In this document: positions 1,493 through 42,068 of the stretch, in pieces
Layout: the number at the start of each line of letters is the position of its first letter
Position numbering within the stretch: position 1 is the first letter of the stretch
Virus record (IMG/VR): IMGVR_UViG_3300024358_000010
Length of the DNA: 64,000 nt
Origin: a virus
Reading direction: 5' to 3' (one strand)
Notes under the pieces: model-generated
What the model saw: only the letters and a program-made list of their open reading frames with translations
Told to the model about the DNA's origin: nothing
Databases searched by the model: none
Made by a program: the position numbers and the translations under genes

Positions 1493-4400
1493 CTATAATA
1501 AACTCAAGGCCTTAAATAGCGCCTGACTCGCATCGATACGGTACTCTAAGACATCGCCAGTGTCAAGATCTTGCTGTATCGTGATCTGGTTCGAGTCTGC
1601 ACCCGCGACACCAACTTCTAAGTAATCGTCACCCAGCAGTAATTTCTGACCGTTCAAATAAACCGTCAAGAATCCTGCGCCGACCGTGTAATAACGGATC
1701 ACGTTACTTGCCCTTGAATCCACTGGTAAAGTTAAAGTGGCACCAGAGATTACCGCAGTTATCTGAGTGTCCGCTTCCTGGTAGATACTGGCGTTCACAC
1801 CGACCGTCTTAGGCTGAAGGACAATCTTGTTGTTGGCGACAGCGGTTCCCAATGAGAACACTGGAGTACCGTAAGTCGTCGGTCTGACGCCGGTCGCGAC
1901 GCCGGCAGATACGGTAGATAAATAAGCGGCTTGACCAACTGTCAAAGAGCTCGTAGCAACCGTGGCAACACCTGCGATCTGTACCTGACCGGTAGAGCCA
2001 TCGGCTATATTCTGGTACGCGACGCCGATAGTTTTCAGCGCGTTAGGCAGAGTAGACGCCGTAGCCAGAACTATTTGGTTGGTTACGGTGTCTGCCGCTA
2101 CAACGGCACCAACCGGGATCAGGGTTCCCGTGTTATTGGTGAACACTGCCAAAAGGTTGGGAACACCAGCAACCACTAATTGATTGCTTTGGATTTGGAT
2201 GGAGGTTCCGTCAACCGCGACGCCCAAACCGTTCGCACCGGTGACAATAGCACCAGCAGCATCCAGCTTCACGCCGAGCTGGTTGGTCGCAACTTGCAGA
2301 GTCGGGTTGACGGTCTCGAGGTTTACGCCGACACCGCTGGCGCCAGAAGTAATCGCTCTCGCGCCGTCTAGTTTAACGTCTAGAGCGTTAGCCGTAATCG
2401 CCAAACCAGGATTCGTGACGTTCAAATTAACGCCGATACCAGAAACACCAGAGGTAACCGCTCGTGCCGCATCCAATTTAACGTCTAATTTATTGGATGC
2501 AATCTTTAATCCTGGATCAACGGTTTCAAGATTTACGCCGACTCCAGTTGCGGCAGACACGATCGCGCCAGAGGTATCTAGATTAACGCCTAAACGGTTG
2601 GTGGTAATCTTAAGAGAAGGATTCGTGGCTTCTAGTTGAACGCCGATACCAGAAGCACCAGTAACAACCGCACCTGCGCCGTCTAACTTCACGCCGAGCT
2701 GGTTGGTGTCGATTTTAAGTGAAGGATTTGTCCCTTCCAAATTAACGCCGATACCGGACAAACCAGAAGTGATGGCTCTCGCACCATCCAGTTTAACGTC
2801 TAGTTGGTTCGCGGTGATTGCTAGACCCGGATTGCTGGTCGCCAAATTGACACCGATACCAGCGCCAAGAACGTCTGCAACGATAGCCTTTGCGGGATCG
2901 AGGTTGACAGATAAGTTGCTGCCTGACAGCTCCATCGAGTTCGCGTCTAGATTAAGCGAGATGCCAGTTGCGCCTAAAGTCAACGCGCCACCGGCTGGAA
3001 CTTTTGCTTTTAACTTGCCAGTAGCAAACTCTAATCCCGAGTTAGTTGCTAGATCCACAGATATCGTCGAGCCGGTGATGTCGACGCCGTTACCTTCGGT
3101 CAAGAAGGAGGTCGGGTTGACGATGGCGTTCGTGATATTTACCGTGTCTGGTACGAAACCAGGACGAGTATGCTTTAAATCACCGCTCGTATCTACCCAA
3201 AGACCGTTTTGCCCTAATGCTAACGGGTTTCCTGCCTGCGGAGTAAATTCAATACCGGCAGGGTCGATGACGCCCGTGATCGCCATATCGCCCGTAATCG
3301 AAAGCGCTTTACCAACACCGCCTGGCATATTCAGCGTAACCGGTGAACCAGAGGTAACCGCGATCACGTTGTTGTTGTTGTAGGCTTGCTGGAGAGTGGT
3401 GGTCGAGAAGCTCTGAGGCGTCGTATACATACCGCCAATGCTGCCGATCCTGAAGCTTAAAACGTCGCCTTCTATCAAATCCTGCAGGATCTCAATCTGG
3501 CTAGAAGCAGAATTCAGCGTTCCAAACTCATTGTAGTCTTCGCCGCGCTTCATGCGCTGACCATTGAGGAACATCTCGAGCTGACCAGATCCAACCATAT
3601 AGTAGCGGGTCGAGTTGTCGTTTCTGCTGTCGTTTGGAAGGTAGATCGTATCGCCAGACAGCTTTGGTGCTTGAAACTCGTTGCTGTTAGCTGGCGCACC
3701 CGACACGCCAATCTTATCTTCGTCGTATATGTTGCCGATCTGGAAGTCGTGCCTGAGTTTAATCAGCGCGCCCATCTTCGTCGTGTAGAGGACGATCACG
3801 TCCTGATCAGTCGGCACGTCTTCGTTGTTGGTGACGTAGAGTGCACCGGCGACGTCTGTGTCCTGGTAGGATGCCGACGTCTGAACCGTGTTGAAGGTTT
3901 TGTTGGCGCGGCGGTTGATCCGCACCCAAATAGATTTATTGTTTCCGACTGCAAAACCAGTGGGATACGTGGTATTGATCGCCGTGGTGTCGATCTCGTT
4001 GGTGACGTTGCTGCCGGGGATGATGATCCGCACGTAGCCATTGGTGTTGTAGTAGACGAATCCTGCACCAGAGTAGTTTACGCCGGCTTCATCGTGGATC
4101 ACCACGTTTCTATTCTGACCAGTCTCGTTGTCATTGCTGGTCCACGATCCGCCGTTAGGGATCTTAGATCCGTCCCACGTGTAGATCTCAGTACCAGTAA
4201 GGCGATACAAAAGAATAATTTTGTTTTCGCCGAGTTCAAATGATGAATCTAAGCTCTCAACTTGAGCATTTACCGTGCCAACTGCGTTTCTGTCAATCGT
4301 GGCAGTTAGTGCCTTGTTAGCTGCCATGTTGAACGGGCTAGCAGGCAAAGTTAGCTGTTGATTGCCAGTCCCAGGCAGCATCGCGTAGATGGGATCTCCA

Positions 4401-27146: not shown

Positions 27147-27177
27147 ATCCCCACTAGATTTGAAATCTAGTGGGGAT
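27147..27177 (-). terminator. Intrinsic terminator after the sheath gene
   Basis: 14-bp perfect inverted repeat ATCCCCACTAGATT-tga-AATCTAGTGGGGAT about 20 nt past the stop. Confidence 0.75.
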
Positions 27178-35581: not shown

Positions 35582-35685
35582 CCTTTAATCGGGTGGTTCC
35601 ACCTTTATAGAGTATTTGCGCTGCGGGGACCCCATTTTCCGAGGGATTCCTTAGTGTTCTGGAGGCTAGCGGGTATTTCCGAGTC

Positions 35686-35808
35686 TATTATTAAATATAA
35701 TTAATTAAATAATTAAAATTAATTAATTATTAAATTTAATTAAAATTAATTATATAAATCTGAAACTATTAATATATATAATTAAATAATAATAAATATT
35801 ATTATATA
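35686..35808. other. Almost pure A/T tract containing two tandem promoter-like motifs
   Basis: About 120 bp with only a few G/C bases; CCGA/CTGA-N13-TATAAT at 35679 and 35760. Confidence 0.8.
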
Positions 35809-35845
35809 GAGACTGGTGCCAATCAACACTATTGGGAGGTGTACT

Positions 35846-36217
35846 ATGGACAAGTTTGCCAGCCAACAAGCAGCCTTGCGTGCAGCCCTGACAATTGTGC
35901 TTGGATCCGAGCCTGTCAAGGGCCAACTGGTCATCACCGACGAGCAGCGTGCCGCCGTGGGACAATTGATGATGCAGTGGTTGAGGGAGGAGCGCTGGAC
36001 GATCAAGGAGGGTACGCGCGCCGCGGCCGAACCTATGATGTACATAACTGGTCGCAGGCCGACCGACCTGATCCAAGCCTGGGTGAACCCCAGGAAGAAG
36101 GAGAAGAGTGAGGAGGTTGGTGGTGACAAGCTCGCCCTCATCAAGCAGGCAGTTGACGCTGGGCTGATGAGCAAGGAGCAGGCGCAAGAGCTGATCATGA
36201 AGTTCCTGGCTGCGTGA
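35846..36217 (+). CDS. Early protein, divergent member of the SQ-x-x-A paralogue family
   Basis: GGGAGGT RBS; SQQAAL...YITG..LIQAW aligns loosely with 37714, 41518 and 57968. Confidence 0.75.
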   Translation: MDKFASQQAALRAALTIVLGSEPVKGQLVITDEQRAAVGQLMMQWLREERWTIKEGTRAAAEPMMYITGRRPTDLIQAWVNPRKKEKSEEVGGDKLALIKQAVDAGLMSKEQAQELIMKFLAA

Positions 36218-36220
36218 TCT

Positions 36221-36232
36221 GTAGCAGTGTCG
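36221..36232. repeat. 12-bp motif GTAGCAGTGTCG / CGACACTGCTAC (copy 1 of 5)
   Basis: Exact copies at 36221 and 37054 (one orientation) and 39344, 41360 and 51558 (reverse orientation). Confidence 0.85.
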
Positions 36233-36287
36233 GGCGGGACTCACGGATCCGAGTCCCCTAGAGGCAACCCGAAACTAGGAGGTAGCT

Positions 36288-36356
36288 ATGATCATTGAGA
36301 TAGCGCTGACGATAGCGACGATCATCGTGTGCAACCTGCTGCTCCGCGCAGCGTAA
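36288..36356 (+). CDS. 22-aa hydrophobic peptide
   Basis: MIIEIALTIATIIVCNLLLRAA with AGGAGGT RBS. Confidence 0.6.
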   Translation: MIIEIALTIATIIVCNLLLRAA

Positions 36357-36370
36357 CCAGGAGGTCCGAT

Positions 36371-36595
36371 ATGAGAGTGCAGTTCAAGTCAAGGCACGAG
36401 GCAACCATCTCCTTCACGGCCGAGTCGTTCGAGAAGCTGATGTCTAAGCAGTTCGACGAGCTCGAGTGCGTGATGGTCGACGAGCGGGTGATCGTGATCA
36501 CGAGGTCGCAGCTCGTGTTCCTGTGGGCTAAGACGCGCGACTGGCGCAAGGTGCCGCACTCCAGCACTATGGTGAAGATACTGAAAGTAGCGTAG
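36371..36595 (+). CDS. Hypothetical early protein
   Basis: AGGAGG RBS before MRVQFKSR. Confidence 0.7.
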   Translation: MRVQFKSRHEATISFTAESFEKLMSKQFDELECVMVDERVIVITRSQLVFLWAKTRDWRKVPHSSTMVKILKVA

Positions 36596-36650
36596 CTGTT
36601 ATGGGCTCACGGATGAGCCCCTAGAGGCAACCCGAAACTAGGAGGTTATT

Positions 36651-37025
36651 ATGAGCAGCAACAACGACATCATCCAAGTGATCATGAACGACCTCAACGC
36701 CCACCCGCAGCGCGGCCGCATCGACGTGATGGACCCGCTGGCGGATGAAATGGGCCTCGACAGCGTTCTGCCCGGCGACGTCGTGATCGCGCCCGACTTC
36801 GATGACGATGAGCTGTGTGCCGCCGGCGACACCGACGGCGTGAACGAGCTGGCCGAATGGTACAACGGCACGCTGTACATCCAGATCGACCGGGTGATGA
36901 ACTCGCTCGGGTACGAGATGATCCACGAGAACGACGGCAGCGGCGGCGGACTCTACTACGGCATAGTCCAGTACCGCAAGCGGTTTCTGACCGACACCAC
37001 GACCCGGCTGCGCATCGTCAAGTAA
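36651..37025 (+). CDS. Acidic early protein ending in LRIVK
   Basis: AGGAGGT RBS; cassette position. Confidence 0.75.
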   Translation: MSSNNDIIQVIMNDLNAHPQRGRIDVMDPLADEMGLDSVLPGDVVIAPDFDDDELCAAGDTDGVNELAEWYNGTLYIQIDRVMNSLGYEMIHENDGSGGGLYYGIVQYRKRFLTDTTTRLRIVK

Positions 37026-37117
37026 TCTTTGTGGGCTCACGGATGAGCCTTCTGTAGCAGTGTCGCCCGCATTCGCCATCCCCGAAACTATTATCAAGTA
37101 TAATAAGGAGATGCAAC

Positions 37118-37387
37118 ATGAGCAACCAAAACCTTATCACCCAGATCAAGCAGTTCTTGGACTCAAACGACTCAGCACCTGGCGCTCGCTGCTTTGTGCT
37201 GCAGCACATCCGCGATGTGCCTGATACTGAGTTCAGTGCGATCTATGAAGAGTCTGAGGGTGTCAATGACACAGAGCGCAACGCGCTGATCGATTCCATG
37301 ACTGATGCGCAATTGCTGGAGCTGTCTGCGAGCTTGCTCGAGATCGCCAGCGAGAAGATCCTGTATCTTGAAGACTCTGTACGGTAA
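37118..37387 (+). CDS. Hypothetical early protein
   Basis: AAGGAG RBS after the promoter motif. Confidence 0.75.
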   Translation: MSNQNLITQIKQFLDSNDSAPGARCFVLQHIRDVPDTEFSAIYEESEGVNDTERNALIDSMTDAQLLELSASLLEIASEKILYLEDSVR

Positions 37388-37410
37388 CCAACTCAACTAA
37401 GGAGGTCAAC

Positions 37411-37611
37411 ATGTACGCCTTGAATGTCCGCTCTCCTGACTATGAGACTGCTATCGGGTTCGGGCCCACATGCGACGGTGTTGTCAAGATTATGCTGGTC
37501 GACGTGATGAGCGTCCGCGATCAAGTCTACTTCTACATCGCTGAGGATCTACTTGCCAACCTCGCTGAGGGTGAGATCTTGCCGCCAAACAGTCTACTGA
37601 CTATCTGCTGA
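37411..37611 (+). CDS. Hypothetical early protein
   Basis: AAGGAGGT RBS. Confidence 0.7.
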   Translation: MYALNVRSPDYETAIGFGPTCDGVVKIMLVDVMSVRDQVYFYIAEDLLANLAEGEILPPNSLLTIC

Positions 37612-37713
37612 TTATCTCGGGCTCACGGATGAGCCCAACTATCTCCGAAATTAACATTAAATATAAATGATGACGATCAAGTTAATCAACCAACCAAATA
37701 TCAGGAGAACAAC

Positions 37714-38220
37714 ATGAGCAAGCTATCACAACACGCCGCAGTCGTCCAAGTCACCCAAGCCCACTTCGGTGAGCGCTTCATCCCCGGCTCCGACATCAAA
37801 GAGATCGCGACCAAGTCCGACAAGCAAGTCATCGCCACCAAGATCGCCGAGATGATGCTCGAAGGTGCGGTCGAGCTGAGCGATGGCGCCCGAGCCAAGT
37901 ACGGCGAGTCCGCCGAGACCCTAACGAGCAAGTACGTGGTCGGCATGGTCACCAACTGGTTCAACAAGTCCAAGGAGCTTAACGGTGGCGTCAAGTACGA
38001 AGCCAAGAATCCTGGCTCGCGGTTCGGTGCCGGTGATGCGCAGCTGAAAGAGCTCAACCTCCTCCGCAAGCAGCTCGTCGAGATCGGCAACGAAGACGGC
38101 GTCGCGCGGTGTGACGAAGCCATCGCGCAGCGCAAAGAGTTCCTGCGCGAACAGAACCAGCCGAAAGTTGAGATCAACGCAGACAACCTCCCAGCTAACC
38201 TTCGCGATCTAGTCGGTTAA
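37714..38220 (+). CDS. Early protein, paralogue family (NWFNK..LNGG.KYEAKNPGSR)
   Basis: C-terminal half nearly identical to 41518-42033; AGGAG RBS. Confidence 0.85.
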   Translation: MSKLSQHAAVVQVTQAHFGERFIPGSDIKEIATKSDKQVIATKIAEMMLEGAVELSDGARAKYGESAETLTSKYVVGMVTNWFNKSKELNGGVKYEAKNPGSRFGAGDAQLKELNLLRKQLVEIGNEDGVARCDEAIAQRKEFLREQNQPKVEINADNLPANLRDLVG

Positions 38221-38318
38221 TCAGCAGCGCGGATGAGCTCACGGACGAGCTCATCCTTCGCTTCTTCTGATCTTATTAATTAATATGATCAACAACTAAC
38301 TACGAAAGCGAGATCAAC

Positions 38319-38576
38319 ATGAGCAACGCACAGCACATCTTAGACAACTGTGATCTTCTCGTTAAAGCTGACTGCAAGATCGTTGATGACGTTGTGTACG
38401 AGCGCTGTAAGTTTGTTGACCCTCTGTTTACAAAGTCTGAGTTCGTAAATACTGATACTGAGACATACTATCTGAACGACGATGATCACGTGTATCGCTT
38501 CTTCATCACTGACGACGACTACGACTATGTGACTGACGCTGAGACTGTAAGCAAGCTCAACGATCTCTTCAAGTGA
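38319..38576 (+). CDS. Hypothetical acidic early protein
   Basis: ORF filling the space between two hairpins. Confidence 0.7.
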   Translation: MSNAQHILDNCDLLVKADCKIVDDVVYERCKFVDPLFTKSEFVNTDTETYYLNDDDHVYRFFITDDDYDYVTDAETVSKLNDLFK

Positions 38577-38642
38577 TCTGATCGCGAGCTCGAAGATGAG
38601 CTCGCTTCTCTTCTCAAACCCAGCAACCACTCAGGAGACGCT

Positions 38643-38804
38643 ATGAAAATCAATGATCGAGTGTCTACTCCAGAAGGTGATGGTGTTGTTGTTAGTTTAT
38701 CCATAGACAATGATATGTTTGAGAGCGAAGAAGGACCCAACATCTGTGTTCAACTAGATTCTGGGGATGTGCTTTACTTTTATAGCGATGAGTTAACTAC
38801 TTAA
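38643..38804 (+). CDS. Small SH3/KOW-like protein (53 aa)
   Basis: Own translation MKINDRVSTPEGDGVVVSL...ICVQLDSGDVLYFYSDEL; AGGAG RBS. Confidence 0.65.
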   Translation: MKINDRVSTPEGDGVVVSLSIDNDMFESEEGPNICVQLDSGDVLYFYSDELTT

Positions 38805-38835
38805 GCTTAGACTCACAACCGCTCAGGAGGTCAGC

Positions 38836-39111
38836 ATGTTTACGAGTGAAGATCTTGGTGGTCACGTCATTAAAGTTGATACTGTACTCCGCTATGATGA
38901 CAGCGACCGATCCCATATCCTCGTGCTGTCTGATACTGACTCTGATGGTCTAGTCCACATCTACTACGGACCAAGTCTGGCAGATGCGCTGCAAGAAATA
39001 TCTGAGCTGGTTGACTCCTCTGAGATGGCAACCTTAAGCAACCAGCTCAATACGTACCTGAGTGAGTATCACTCCAGCTTCTTAGCTCAACAACAAAGGA
39101 GGTCAACATGA
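38836..39111 (+). CDS. Hypothetical early protein
   Basis: AGGAGGT RBS. Confidence 0.7.
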   Translation: MFTSEDLGGHVIKVDTVLRYDDSDRSHILVLSDTDSDGLVHIYYGPSLADALQEISELVDSSEMATLSNQLNTYLSEYHSSFLAQQQRRST

Positions 39112-39317
39112 TAACCAAGCGAGACATAGTGCGGATGGCGATGGTGTCGGCTGACAGCATGACAACCAACGTGTATGATCTTGACTACTACCGAGCGCGG
39201 ATCAAGTTCGTCGACGACTACCAGCCAAGCAAACCAACCACCAAGTTCAAGACCGACCGCGAGCGAGTTAAAGAGTTGCAGAAGAAGAATAACAACTACA
39301 AAGATATCCGCAGTTAA
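39108..39317 (+). CDS. Hypothetical early protein
   Basis: AGGAGGT RBS; ATGA overlap with the upstream gene. Confidence 0.7.
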   Translation: MITKRDIVRMAMVSADSMTTNVYDLDYYRARIKFVDDYQPSKPTTKFKTDRERVKELQKKNNNYKDIRS

Positions 39318-39422
39318 CCGTCTGGTGCAGCCTCAAGCTGCACCGACACTGCTACGCCCAAGCCCGCCACAGCGCGCCGGTTGTTTCCGAAACTATTAAT
39401 TAATATAATTAAGGAGGTCAAA

Positions 39423-39590
39423 ATGAAAGTTATACTGTCGAACAGTGACGATAGTCTAGGGATCGGTAAAATCCTAGTCTTTGAAGAAAACGACGTGTCG
39501 ATATCGATCTCCTCAGAAGAGGAGTGGTGTGTAGTCGATCACTCCGATAATGATCGTTGTTACTACGGGTACGATCTGGTTAAACTCTAA
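39423..39590 (+). CDS. Hypothetical early protein
   Basis: AAGGAGGT RBS before MKVILS. Confidence 0.65.
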   Translation: MKVILSNSDDSLGIGKILVFEENDVSISISSEEEWCVVDHSDNDRCYYGYDLVKL

Positions 39591-39666
39591 AGTAAATTGG
39601 GGTCATGGATGACCCCACTTGAGTTTCCGAAACCAATCTTACATGTGAATAACTCAGGAGGTCAAA

Positions 39667-39936
39667 ATGATAGCAAATGTCAAACTTGAAGGCACTATCA
39701 ACCGCATCGTTACTCTTGCTGGACACCGCTTTGAAGCGTTTGATGAGTCATTCCGCTTCGCAGATGGCCCTAACTGCGACGAGTACGTAGCCGACCATGA
39801 TCTCAAACTAGCCGAACAATTAGACTCACTGTGTGAATTGTTTGCTGTCACCGATAACCAAGACGTCAGCTATGATGTTGACCTTGCAACAAAACAGATC
39901 TCCAACCTTAAAGTTGAATTAGTTGATCTCGACTAG
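39667..39936 (+). CDS. Hypothetical early protein
   Basis: AGGAGGT RBS. Confidence 0.7.
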   Translation: MIANVKLEGTINRIVTLAGHRFEAFDESFRFADGPNCDEYVADHDLKLAEQLDSLCELFAVTDNQDVSYDVDLATKQISNLKVELVDLD

Positions 39937-40015
39937 ACCTTCGGAGGGCGCTCGGGACTCACGGATGAGTCCCACTACCTCCGAATCAATTAGAGGGTAT
40001 AAATAGGAGGTCAAC

Positions 40016-40598
40016 ATGGACAATGCGCAGCTCAAGTCTCTCGAAGAGATCCTGACTTATCTCAACTCGATCGACATAGCTGAAGATCCAGACACTTTCG
40101 AGTATTTATCTGGCATACGCGACCAAGCCAGCCGTATCATGCGCGACACTATACAGTGGGTCGAAAGGGGATCACTATGAAAGTGGTATTCACCGACGAC
40201 GAGCTGATGCTGATGGCCGACCTCGTCGAGGATGCGCTGACTCGAGAGCCGAACCGAGACGATCTCAAGCAGCTGATGTCGCGGCTCGCTTACTTAACCA
40301 CCACCAAGTGGGAGGTCTAGCATGGATATTAACCAGGAGAAAGTGCTGCTGCTCAACGGCATCGCACACCTCAAATACGAGCTCATGCTGACTCGCGGTC
40401 CAAGAAGTATCGACATCCTCGAAAGGCTTGAGACGCTGCGTAATTGCCTCGAGATCTTGATCAGCAAAGAACTTCGAATCTTTTCCAAGGAGATCTAATA
40501 TGAAAGCGTTGACTAGCGCCGAACTCAAGAGGATCTACAAGGGTAAGCGTCCCAAGTCAGCCTGGGAAGTTCTTCTAACCCCGCCAAAGAAAGGATAG
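40016..40598 (+). other. Run of four coupled small ORFs (40016-40180, 40177-40320, 40322-40498, 40500-40598)
   Basis: Own translations MDNAQLKS.., MKVVFTDD.., MDINQEKV.., MKALTSAE..; each has a GGAG/GGGG RBS and abutting start and stop. Confidence 0.65.
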
Positions 40599-40728
40599 CG
40601 TGATGCTTGCTATGCAGATCATCAAAGCCACCGCTGTAGCAGCGACCATGCTGCTGATCGTCGCCGCGGTGAACATCGCTGTAAAGATCATCCGAATCAA
40701 TAAGTAAGTATAATAAACAGGAGGTTAT

Positions 40729-40965
40729 ATGGCTTACTCATCCATCCACAACGTCGATACTTCACTCAAATATGTCGTCCGCCTCGACGGCGAAGTGATC
40801 CGCAGGGATGTTCAACCGCACCACGTCAACTCGATCGTCTACTCGCTCGAGTCCGAAGGTATCAGCATCAGTGACGAGATCTGGAACGACGACGAGATGG
40901 CGGTTGATCTCATGACCACCACAGTCTTCGACGACTTCGAAACTGACGACGACTACATCGACTAA
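40729..40965 (+). CDS. Hypothetical acidic early protein
   Basis: Promoter motif and AGGAGGT RBS. Confidence 0.7.
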   Translation: MAYSSIHNVDTSLKYVVRLDGEVIRRDVQPHHVNSIVYSLESEGISISDEIWNDDEMAVDLMTTTVFDDFETDDDYID

Positions 40966-40974
40966 GGAGCGACC

Positions 40975-41289
40975 ATGAGATACTTAGCTATCGCGCTGCT
41001 GCTCGGCGGCTGCGCCACGACCAAAGACGCAGACCAGCTCAGAACAGAGTTGACCACGACCCGGCTCCGCCTGGACGAGACGCGCTACCACGTTCAGATT
41101 GAATCCTGCCGAACCACCGCGCTCGTTTGTGGCCTTGTGACTAAGAACGAGGAGAAGTGTATCGATTCTTTCTCCGACTGCGTGACCTCGGCTATTGAAG
41201 GTTTCCGCATCCGATACGGCAAAGAACCCTCCGACCTCTTTGACAAGCTTGAAGTAGTAGACAAACTCGACCCCAAGCGTGCTCGCTAG
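40975..41289 (+). CDS. Putative lipoprotein
   Basis: MRYLAIALLLGG-C lipobox-like signal; AAGGAG RBS. Confidence 0.65.
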   Translation: MRYLAIALLLGGCATTKDADQLRTELTTTRLRLDETRYHVQIESCRTTALVCGLVTKNEEKCIDSFSDCVTSAIEGFRIRYGKEPSDLFDKLEVVDKLDPKRAR

Positions 41290-41517
41290 GGCGACCTCCT
41301 GATAAACCTCGGGGATCTACTCGGTCCCCGGGGTACTTCCCAACACAGCCGGGCCTCGCCGACACTGCTACGCCCACAGCCCACGCCCGACTATTTCCGA
41401 ATCTATCATTGAGTATAAGATGATGATGAAATTAAAATAATTGCTGCTGAGTTTATCCGATCCTATCTTTAACCATCGGGCAAATGTTATTGCCCAGCAA
41501 ACCAAGGAGTGTTATCC

Positions 41518-42033
41518 ATGGCTATGAAGCAACGTGAAGCAGTCTACCAAGTCACCACCGAAGTCCTCGCCGCCAAAGGCATCGAGTTCATGCCCACCGT
41601 CACCGACGTGCGCGACCTCGTCAACTCCGAGATCCGCTCGGAGATCACCGACAAGATCGTGACCATGTTCCAAGAAGGTCAAGTGGAGTTCAAGTCTACC
41701 GAGTCCAACCAGGAGAAGATGTCCGACACCAAGAAGCTCCGCAGCTACGTCACCGGCCTCATCACCAACTGGTTCAACAAGGATACGCAGCTCAACGGCG
41801 GCGCCAAGTACGAAGCCAAAAACCCCGGTTCCCGCTCACCCGACGCCCAGCTGAAAGAGCTCCGCATCCTCAAGAAGCACCTCGAAGCCAAAGGTGACGC
41901 TGACGGTGTCAGCCGCTGCGACGAAGCGATCGCCCAGCGGATCGAGTTCCTCAAGGCAGAGAAAGCTCCAACTTCCCTCCCAGCCGTAGACCCAGACAAC
42001 CTCCCCGACTTCCTGAAGGACCTGGCTGTCTAA
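41518..42033 (+). CDS. Early protein, paralogue family
   Basis: QREAVYQ...YVTGLITNWFNKDTQLNGGAKYEAKNPGSR; AAGGAG RBS. Confidence 0.85.
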   Translation: MAMKQREAVYQVTTEVLAAKGIEFMPTVTDVRDLVNSEIRSEITDKIVTMFQEGQVEFKSTESNQEKMSDTKKLRSYVTGLITNWFNKDTQLNGGAKYEAKNPGSRSPDAQLKELRILKKHLEAKGDADGVSRCDEAIAQRIEFLKAEKAPTSLPAVDPDNLPDFLKDLAV

Positions 42034-42041
42034 TCCTCCTA

Positions 42042-42068
42042 GGGAGGGAGACTAAACCTCTCCCTCCC
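42042..42068 (+). terminator. Hairpin closing the cassette region (possible terminator or processing site)
   Basis: GGGAGGGAGA-ctaaacc-TCTCCCTCCC; no clear U tract. Confidence 0.45.

Follow-up and report, generated by a model that had tools for sequence, protein, structure and literature searches.

Post-stop hairpins with a constrained GGA loop in candidate PeSL-like mobile cassettes of an uncultured myovirus

Phage T4 is said to carry stable intercistronic hairpins with C(UUCG)G loops, a finding ascribed to Tuerk et al. in 1988, and the host-takeover module of phage SPO1 described by Stewart et al. in 1998 reportedly consists of many small early genes, each with its own signals. In T4-type phages, PeSLs are cassettes of a stem-loop and a promoter that lie around ORFans; in a reporter a PeSL stem-loop proved effective as a terminator, and one crossover could be placed within a loop (PMC2839356, Arbiol et al. 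2010; PMC4122927, Comeau et al. 2014). Hairpin loops can also be recognized by protein, as for CsrA/RsmE, whose code is an ANGGAN hexaloop with variable N positions, the protein contacts being made by the A and the GGA (review PMC7652899). Here we describe a series of intergenic hairpins in the 64,000-nucleotide stretch of viral DNA from IMG/VR record IMGVR_UViG_3300024358_000010 (hereafter the window). We give an about even chance to the reading that these hairpins are PeSL-like insulator or terminator stem-loops within mobile regulatory cassettes of a plastic ORFan block.

Seven hairpins with perfect stems of 6-10 contiguous base pairs (bp) lie within positions 36236-39973, where an earlier reading of the sequence (the original prediction) had placed them. 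All are on the plus (coding) strand and follow a stop codon at a distance of 6-18 nucleotides (nt), which is 7 nt for four of the seven. GGA stands in the loop of all seven, and the loops are 4-8 nt long. Hairpin IG1 (36236-36257), located 18 nt after the stop at 36215, has a 7-bp stem and an 8-nt loop that corresponds to A-C-GGA-U with a 2-nt insertion; it scored 22.1 bits with the covariance model introduced below and is identical in G001, a related contig of about 90% identity. IG2 (36603-36620) has a 7-bp stem and a CGGA tetraloop, which becomes the hexaloop A-C-GGA-U if an A-U pair opens. The same core is found in IG3 (37033-37050), which has one G.U pair at the stem base, and in IG4 (37619-37636), where a UCCGAA box begins 7 nt downstream; IG2, IG3 and IG4 each lie 7 nt after a stop. 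IG5 (38231-38256), which follows a conserved gene for a 168-amino-acid (aa) protein, has a 10-bp stem and an A-C-GGA-C hexaloop (z -4.6). IG8 (39598-39617) combines an 8-bp stem, in which a C-G pair has undergone a compensatory change to G-C, with a UGGA loop. IG9 (39954-39973), with an 8-bp stem and a CGGA loop (z -3.1), is nested in a longer imperfect palindrome in which an upstream UUCGGAGG pairs with a downstream CCUCCGAA box. Two more post-stop hairpins of the same series, at 38584-38605 and 39324-39344, lack GGA. The first, IG6 (38584-38605, plus strand), lies 7 nt after a stop and has the same type of stem with the loop GAAGAU, which holds no GGA in the usual register (16.5 bits). In the predicted folds, the hairpins dominate most spacers.

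The motif and the stems were assessed statistically. The loose core CAYGGAY, which the original prediction had put forward as the kept element, was not enriched across the window (30 seen versus 24 expected). The longer 10-mer TCA-N-GGA-Y-GA occurred six times, only on the plus strand and only within 36607-39968; 0.87 copies would be expected over the 64 kilobases (kb) with both strands counted, and none of 100 shuffles reached six copies. As RNA, UCA-N-GGA-Y-GA is carried by six of the seven hairpins. The proposed covariation of the stems was likewise found, with changes on both sides in five of eight stem pairs, and 86.8% of the cells in the alignment were paired compared to 26-41% when the partner was slid. 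A covariance model was built on an alignment of 18 hairpin copies (A1), whose only invariant columns are A13, G15, G16 and A17, that is, the loop A, G, G and A. The model detected no further copy in the rest of the window, and only three full matches came from unrelated viral contigs totalling 0.9 Mb, which had been pre-selected for the 14-nt core. A search of relatives with this model, a check named in the original prediction, returned strong matches in closer relatives only, on the coding strand only and in the small-gene block only; no match was found in a 135-kb contig from a relative whose sheath is 78% identical, nor in a complete 177-kb distant relative. A search of Rfam gave no match, and no Csr/Rsm family was matched even at E<=10.

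The hairpins are parts of composite cassettes. In most spacers the order is stop codon, GC-rich hairpin about 7 nt on, phage-specific box, strong Shine-Dalgarno sequence (AGGAGG) and next small gene. The gap between the hairpin and the UCCGAA-type box is usually 6-9 nt, and this arrangement recurs in relatives. The box often extends as CCGA-N13-TATAA with a fixed 13-nt spacing, for which the window holds seven matches, all on the plus strand, versus 0.34 expected (20-fold enriched). One of these promoter-like boxes belongs to the cassette of IG3 (37082-37103), and the others are at 35679, 37645, 39387, 39981, 40692 and 41397, so that the seven span 35679-41418. The boxes may have promoter activity. 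No TATAA box is present between hairpin and Shine-Dalgarno in the spacers of IG1 and IG2. Sigma-70-like promoters were no commoner in the window than in shuffled sequence.

Relatives were gathered by a search with the 14-nt core and by protein-anchored searches, which gave G001 and some forty further loci; identity of the flanking 168-aa protein in these ranges from 98% to 29%. Between these relatives the cassettes behave as movable units. G001 is without one whole unit, made up of hairpin IG8 and the gene at 39423-39590; the absent cassette of small gene, IG8 and box (39426-39649, plus strand) has its break points in repeated Shine-Dalgarno-start sequence. G002 and G003 have a reshuffled gene order: three genes found upstream of the 168-aa gene in the window have their homologues downstream of that gene there. 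The IG9 spacer, comprising hairpin, box and Shine-Dalgarno, travels with its downstream gene, and the upstream gene differs among relatives.

In several respects the arrangement matches PeSLs and PmSLs. Both systems are short composite intergenic repeats that join a stem-loop, stable and GC-rich, to a promoter-type box and a Shine-Dalgarno sequence. They cluster among ORFans in a plastic part of the genome, and the hairpin family does not occur elsewhere in the window. Where close relatives differ by indels or rearrangements, the differences are located at the repeats, and the sequence of the stem-loop differs between phage lineages. Unlike PeSLs, the hairpin here lies upstream of the box and not inside the promoter, the box is not of the sigma-70 type, and the loop is under a base-specific constraint that has not been reported for PeSLs; furthermore, the present phage is not T4-like. 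By analogy, each hairpin would form a stable 3' structure in the message, by which the upstream transcript would be ended, attenuated or protected and each gene unit insulated, while the repeated cassette sequences would serve as recombination points at which gene units are added, removed or reordered.

The original prediction had noted that the hairpins have no U tract and had taken them, for that reason, not to be typical terminators. The observation was essentially right: the hairpins have mixed or C/T-rich tails, and a lenient test of five T in eight positions was passed by one of the seven, that at 39598-39617. The conclusion drawn from it did not stand. Canonical U-run intrinsic terminators were not enriched anywhere in the window relative to shuffled sequence, and the terminator-test counts for the hairpins equalled those in shuffled sequence. 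The missing U run is the rule in this window, not a peculiarity of these hairpins, which are not canonical intrinsic terminators in the sense of a GC hairpin with a direct U run. A 14-bp perfect hairpin directly after the tail-sheath gene (27147-27177, minus strand) also has a UUCUCU-type C/U tail and no U run. Termination or insulation by the window hairpins would be expected by analogy with the PeSL stem-loop.

Comparison with the wider family showed what is retained when the loop is not. Across 33 loci, we compared the slot that follows the 168-aa gene or its paralogue; a paired stem, mostly GC-rich, was present in 30, two had none, and one contig was too short. The loops in this slot include A-N-GGA-N, UCCG, UUCG (four times), GCAA, TGAA and others. 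Loops other than A-N-GGA-N are used in the lower-identity relatives, in which the flanking gene is about 50% identical or below, and in L123 and L124. Since the loops vary widely across the wider family while the hairpin stays, the ancestral and general role of the hairpin appears to be structural. In L158, L161, L164 and L165, the hairpin in the equivalent slot is capped by C(UUCG)G, the classic extra-stable tetraloop. The T4 C(UUCG)G hairpins and the SPO1 module resemble the present locus in having stable hairpins between small early genes, and the distant kin described here use UUCG as well; they differ in that loop identity there is thermodynamic, with no protein code, and no A-N-GGA-N family is known there.

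Within the sub-clade of closer relatives the loop behaves differently. The class-1 scaffold was searched without assuming loop content, which gave 16 stem/loop combinations in five stem families at about 40 related loci. A-N-GGA-N was found in 14 of the 16; the other two were an exact inversion and a GAAGAU loop. When changes were counted within stem families, the minimum inferred was 5 and 4 at the two N positions compared to 2 at A/G/G/A, and both of the latter sit in the single GAAGAU hairpin. A rough binomial from these change counts gave about 0.001, which is indicative and not exact because the copies are related. The loop A was kept in all copies in which its pairing partner U had become C, and no A to G change that would restore the pair was seen. 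Because A/G/G/A is held while the N positions vary, a sequence-specific reader of the loop is implied, and judging from this pattern of substitutions such a reader is likely in the sub-clade. It would act on top of the structural role, with the hairpin tip held as A-N-GGA-N.

The sequence constraint points to a CsrA-family protein as the leading candidate for the reader. The fixed A and GGA with free N positions correspond to the published ANGGAN recognition code, the A is retained even without its partner, and the UCA-N-GGA-Y-GA fit of six loops agrees with this. High-affinity CsrA/RsmE sites, as known from in vitro selection (SELEX), from the RsmE ANGGAN hexaloop and from the glgC leader with its hairpin and Shine-Dalgarno site (PMC7652899), similarly have an A-N-GGA-N tip closed by C-G, variation confined to the N positions and a second GGA in the Shine-Dalgarno, which here lies 30-77 nt downstream. 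The distances from loop GGA to Shine-Dalgarno GGA are 33 nt for IG1, 30 nt for IG2, 50 nt for IG8 and 43 nt for IG9, inside the reported CsrA bridging range of 10-63 nt (PMC7652899). As no TATAA separates hairpin and Shine-Dalgarno in IG1 and IG2, both GGA sites would be on one message there, which favours this reading. The endolysin gives a weak hint of a gammaproteobacterial host: its match list is mixed, with the best relatives in Enterobacteriaceae and Stenotrophomonas at 40-47% identity and Enterobacteriaceae leading at 47%.

Other features fit CsrA sites less well. The SELEX consensus is RUACARGGAUGU, and most SELEX ligands have four or fewer contiguous pairs (PMC7652899). The present hairpins have U in place of the first A of ACA, their stems of 7-10 contiguous pairs are much longer and more stable than those of most ligands, and the hairpins stand between cistrons after stops; a short, weak stem, expected of a CsrA site, was not found. 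At the orthologous IG5 site, the loop of G001 and L147 is the exact reverse complement, giving UCCG in the RNA, and close relatives retain hairpins of the same stem whose loops are CTA, CAG (as at L146:5002-5031) or GCAGU, one of them in several copies per genome. The use of other loops in the lower-identity relatives also argues against CsrA. No csrA was found in the contigs of eight relatives by a PF02599 search, nor in the window and the fetched loci by tblastn with an E. coli CsrA sequence, which is a weak probe, and CsrA was found in only three of 14 control genomes. If the box is a promoter, transcripts that start there would be without the hairpin. In the inverted IG5 loop of G001 (L119:6523-6553) and L147 (2178-2208), the six central bases of the palindrome are flipped with the stem untouched relative to 38231-38256 of the window, in relatives of about 90% identity. 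The CTA triloop on the IG8-type stem is present in two or three copies per genome, about 280-360 nt apart (L155:2315-2344, 2673-2702 and 2950-2979; L154:2740-2769 and 3098-3127).

We weighed two versions of CsrA action, the idea of the original prediction. In a gating version, CsrA tethered at the hairpin would bridge to the GGA of the next Shine-Dalgarno and set downstream translation or stability on read-through messages. In a decoy version, abundant early messages would soak up CsrA and shift host physiology. The known sponges CsrB/CsrC and RsmX/Y/Z also present multiple GGA loops on hairpins, yet they are dedicated non-coding RNAs with about 8-22 sites in 120-370 nt (CsrB has about 18 sites; PMC7652899), whereas here seven sites, 366-1364 nt apart, are spread over 3.7 kb of coding messages and match no Rfam family. 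The window hairpins do not form a sponge RNA of that kind, that is, a dedicated non-coding RNA with closely spaced GGA loops, which weakens the idea of a distributed decoy. Binding of host CsrA to the A-N-GGA-N loops as the selected function is, in our assessment, a tentative possibility. The observation that underlay the original prediction is thus confirmed and its interpretation partly supported: the loops match the CsrA/RsmE code, are constrained in the sub-clade and lie at bridging distances, while the stems are longer than those of most SELEX ligands and single loops are inverted or replaced in close kin. The shuffling of composite hairpin-plus-box cassettes between relatives also weakens the original interpretation. 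The original prediction had also held that loops not conserved in relatives would speak against it; distant relatives keep the hairpin slot with unrelated loops (UUCG, GCAA, TGAA), so this came true in part, and in the sub-clade A-N-GGA-N was held as described above.

The same loop constraint argues for some reader without naming it, and another RNA-level factor may recognise A-N-GGA-N, whether a phage protein or another host RNA-binding protein or endoribonuclease, for example in a timed cut or shut-off of the small-gene messages. The confinement of the hairpin family to one block of one sub-clade fits a phage-specific factor that co-evolves with its sites, and the block is full of ORFans without family assignment. 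A precedent exists in T4 RegB, a phage nuclease aimed at GGA-containing motifs in early messages (PMC1702504), which acts at GGAG. The motif here is GGA-U/C and not GGAG, on which ground RegB sites themselves were rejected. No candidate protein was found, the conserved 168-aa protein is all-helical with no structural relative, and the exact match to the CsrA code would have to be a coincidence. We consider this explanation improbable.

Several points weigh against the PeSL-like reading. The box differs from the sigma-70 consensus, and its TATAA hexamer abuts the Shine-Dalgarno in several spacers, so that it may not be a -10 element. Structure alone does not explain the kept loop A or the constancy of A/G/G/A. 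RNA-level rather than DNA-level folding is favoured only by the post-stop position and the near-uniform sense orientation (about 30 sense copies versus one inverted site), as the wobble pairs, with 2 G.U versus 3 A.C, give no strand signal.

This lack of strand preference among the wobble pairs also fits palindromes that act in DNA, extruded as hairpins or cruciforms that serve as recombination or nicking sites in cassette mobility, as part of the adjoining promoter or as N4-type hairpin promoters. The exact inversion of the loop in close relatives is an event that takes place in DNA, at a palindrome; the loop complement TCCG equals the start of the recurring TCCGAA box and also the loops of the second hairpin class, the hairpin-box gap is fixed at 6-9 nt, and a gene resembling HNH endonucleases lies just upstream (Pfam 19.5 bits, below the curated cut-off of 27.5). 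Such a role is at odds with the strong orientation bias and with the position of the hairpins directly after stop codons, and stems of 6-10 bp with loops of 4-6 nt are short for cruciform extrusion. N4-type hairpin promoters were rejected because they need 3-nt loops, where those of the window have 4-8 nt, and because no giant N4-like virion RNA polymerase was found, the two very large proteins being baseplate and fibre proteins; integron attC sites were rejected because the elements are far too small. A role in DNA is accordingly very unlikely in our view.

Further candidates were tried and set aside. The stems are too short for RNase III sites, and lambda boxB-type nut sites come as one or two sites, not as the array seen here. 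A 3-bp pseudoknot between the loop GGA and UCC of the box is geometrically possible and occurs in about half of the cassettes, but is not separable from the box itself.

A second class of hairpin occurs in the same series. IG7 (39324-39355, plus strand) has a GGUGCAGC-type stem with the 12-mer CGACACTGCTAC directly after it, and relatives carry UCCG or CCGA-type loops at this position. The class is characterized by a CGGUGCA-type stem and is always followed by CGACACTGCTAC. The 12-mer also occurs reversed at 36220-36232 and 37053-37065, adjoining class-1 hairpins, and its use in either orientation suggests a DNA-binding site. In the predicted folds of 37641-37709, 38606-38639, 39618-39657 and 39936-40012, a pyrimidine-rich stretch after the hairpin, partly the UCCGAA box, pairs with the downstream Shine-Dalgarno; if this modelled pairing forms, read-through messages might have a masked ribosome site. 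A 10-bp G-rich hairpin with a GGGAGGGAGA arm follows the paralogue of the 168-aa gene (42042-42068), and in G001, G002, L160 and the distant complete relative G006 its stem is identical and the loops differ.

The phage is a large uncultured myovirus from a lake and is not T4-like. Myovirus late genes, including those for the tail sheath, the baseplate and a 1700-aa fibre, occupy the minus strand up to about 33.6 kb of the window. From about 34 kb the plus strand carries the endolysin gene, the HNH-like gene, an AT-rich stretch and then a long series of small genes; the very AT-rich stretch (35690-35810) heads the block of small genes and separates the late gene set from the early-type set, which diverge from it. 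Ten genes that flank the hairpins are ORFans with no significant PHROG or Pfam family. Within the block, a 22-codon open reading frame at 36288-36356 has its own strong Shine-Dalgarno, would encode a purely hydrophobic peptide and is conserved in G001. The 168-aa gene product is the only early protein conserved across the clade. Two paralogues (37714-38220 and 41518-42033) are 47% identical and share an invariant NWFNK...LNGG...KNPGSR motif. The AlphaFold model of the 168-aa protein is all-helical, with a predicted local distance difference test score (pLDDT) of 85.6, and a structural search with it gave no match in the PDB.

Megablast of the window against phages gave no match. The nearest catalogued match of the sheath is Myxococcus phage Mx1 at 31% identity, with 23% to SPO1-type phages, and a sheath search of bacterial genomes gave no match. 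The ribonucleotide reductase is nearest to those of Flavobacteriia phages at about 50% identity, a link that fits poorly with the strong use of Shine-Dalgarno sequences. No transfer RNAs were found in a search for them. Metagenome assemblies contain the clade widely: 120 collection blocks have the exact 168-aa early protein in their index, hundreds of sheath relatives were seen, and the sample of the distant relative G006 is a Sphagnum peat metagenome.

The fixed A and GGA, the free N positions and the A kept without a partner make a clean sequence signature that points to a reader using the CsrA code. That this phage, as a lytic phage of an uncultured environmental bacterium, turned insulator hairpins between small early-type genes into consensus CsrA docking sites kept by selection is a doubtful but conceivable outcome. 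A literature search yielded no published example in which phage messages are made to bind CsrA. If the docking reading is true, CsrA would be tethered beside each downstream ribosome-binding site or drawn from host messages, and the hairpins would represent an undescribed interface between phage and CsrA. If the hairpins are PeSL-like, as we hold with about even confidence, mobile cassettes of this type, so far described only in T4-type phages, would extend to an unrelated and widespread phage clade, with the same link of repeated terminator-promoter units to ORFan shuffling as in T4-type phages.

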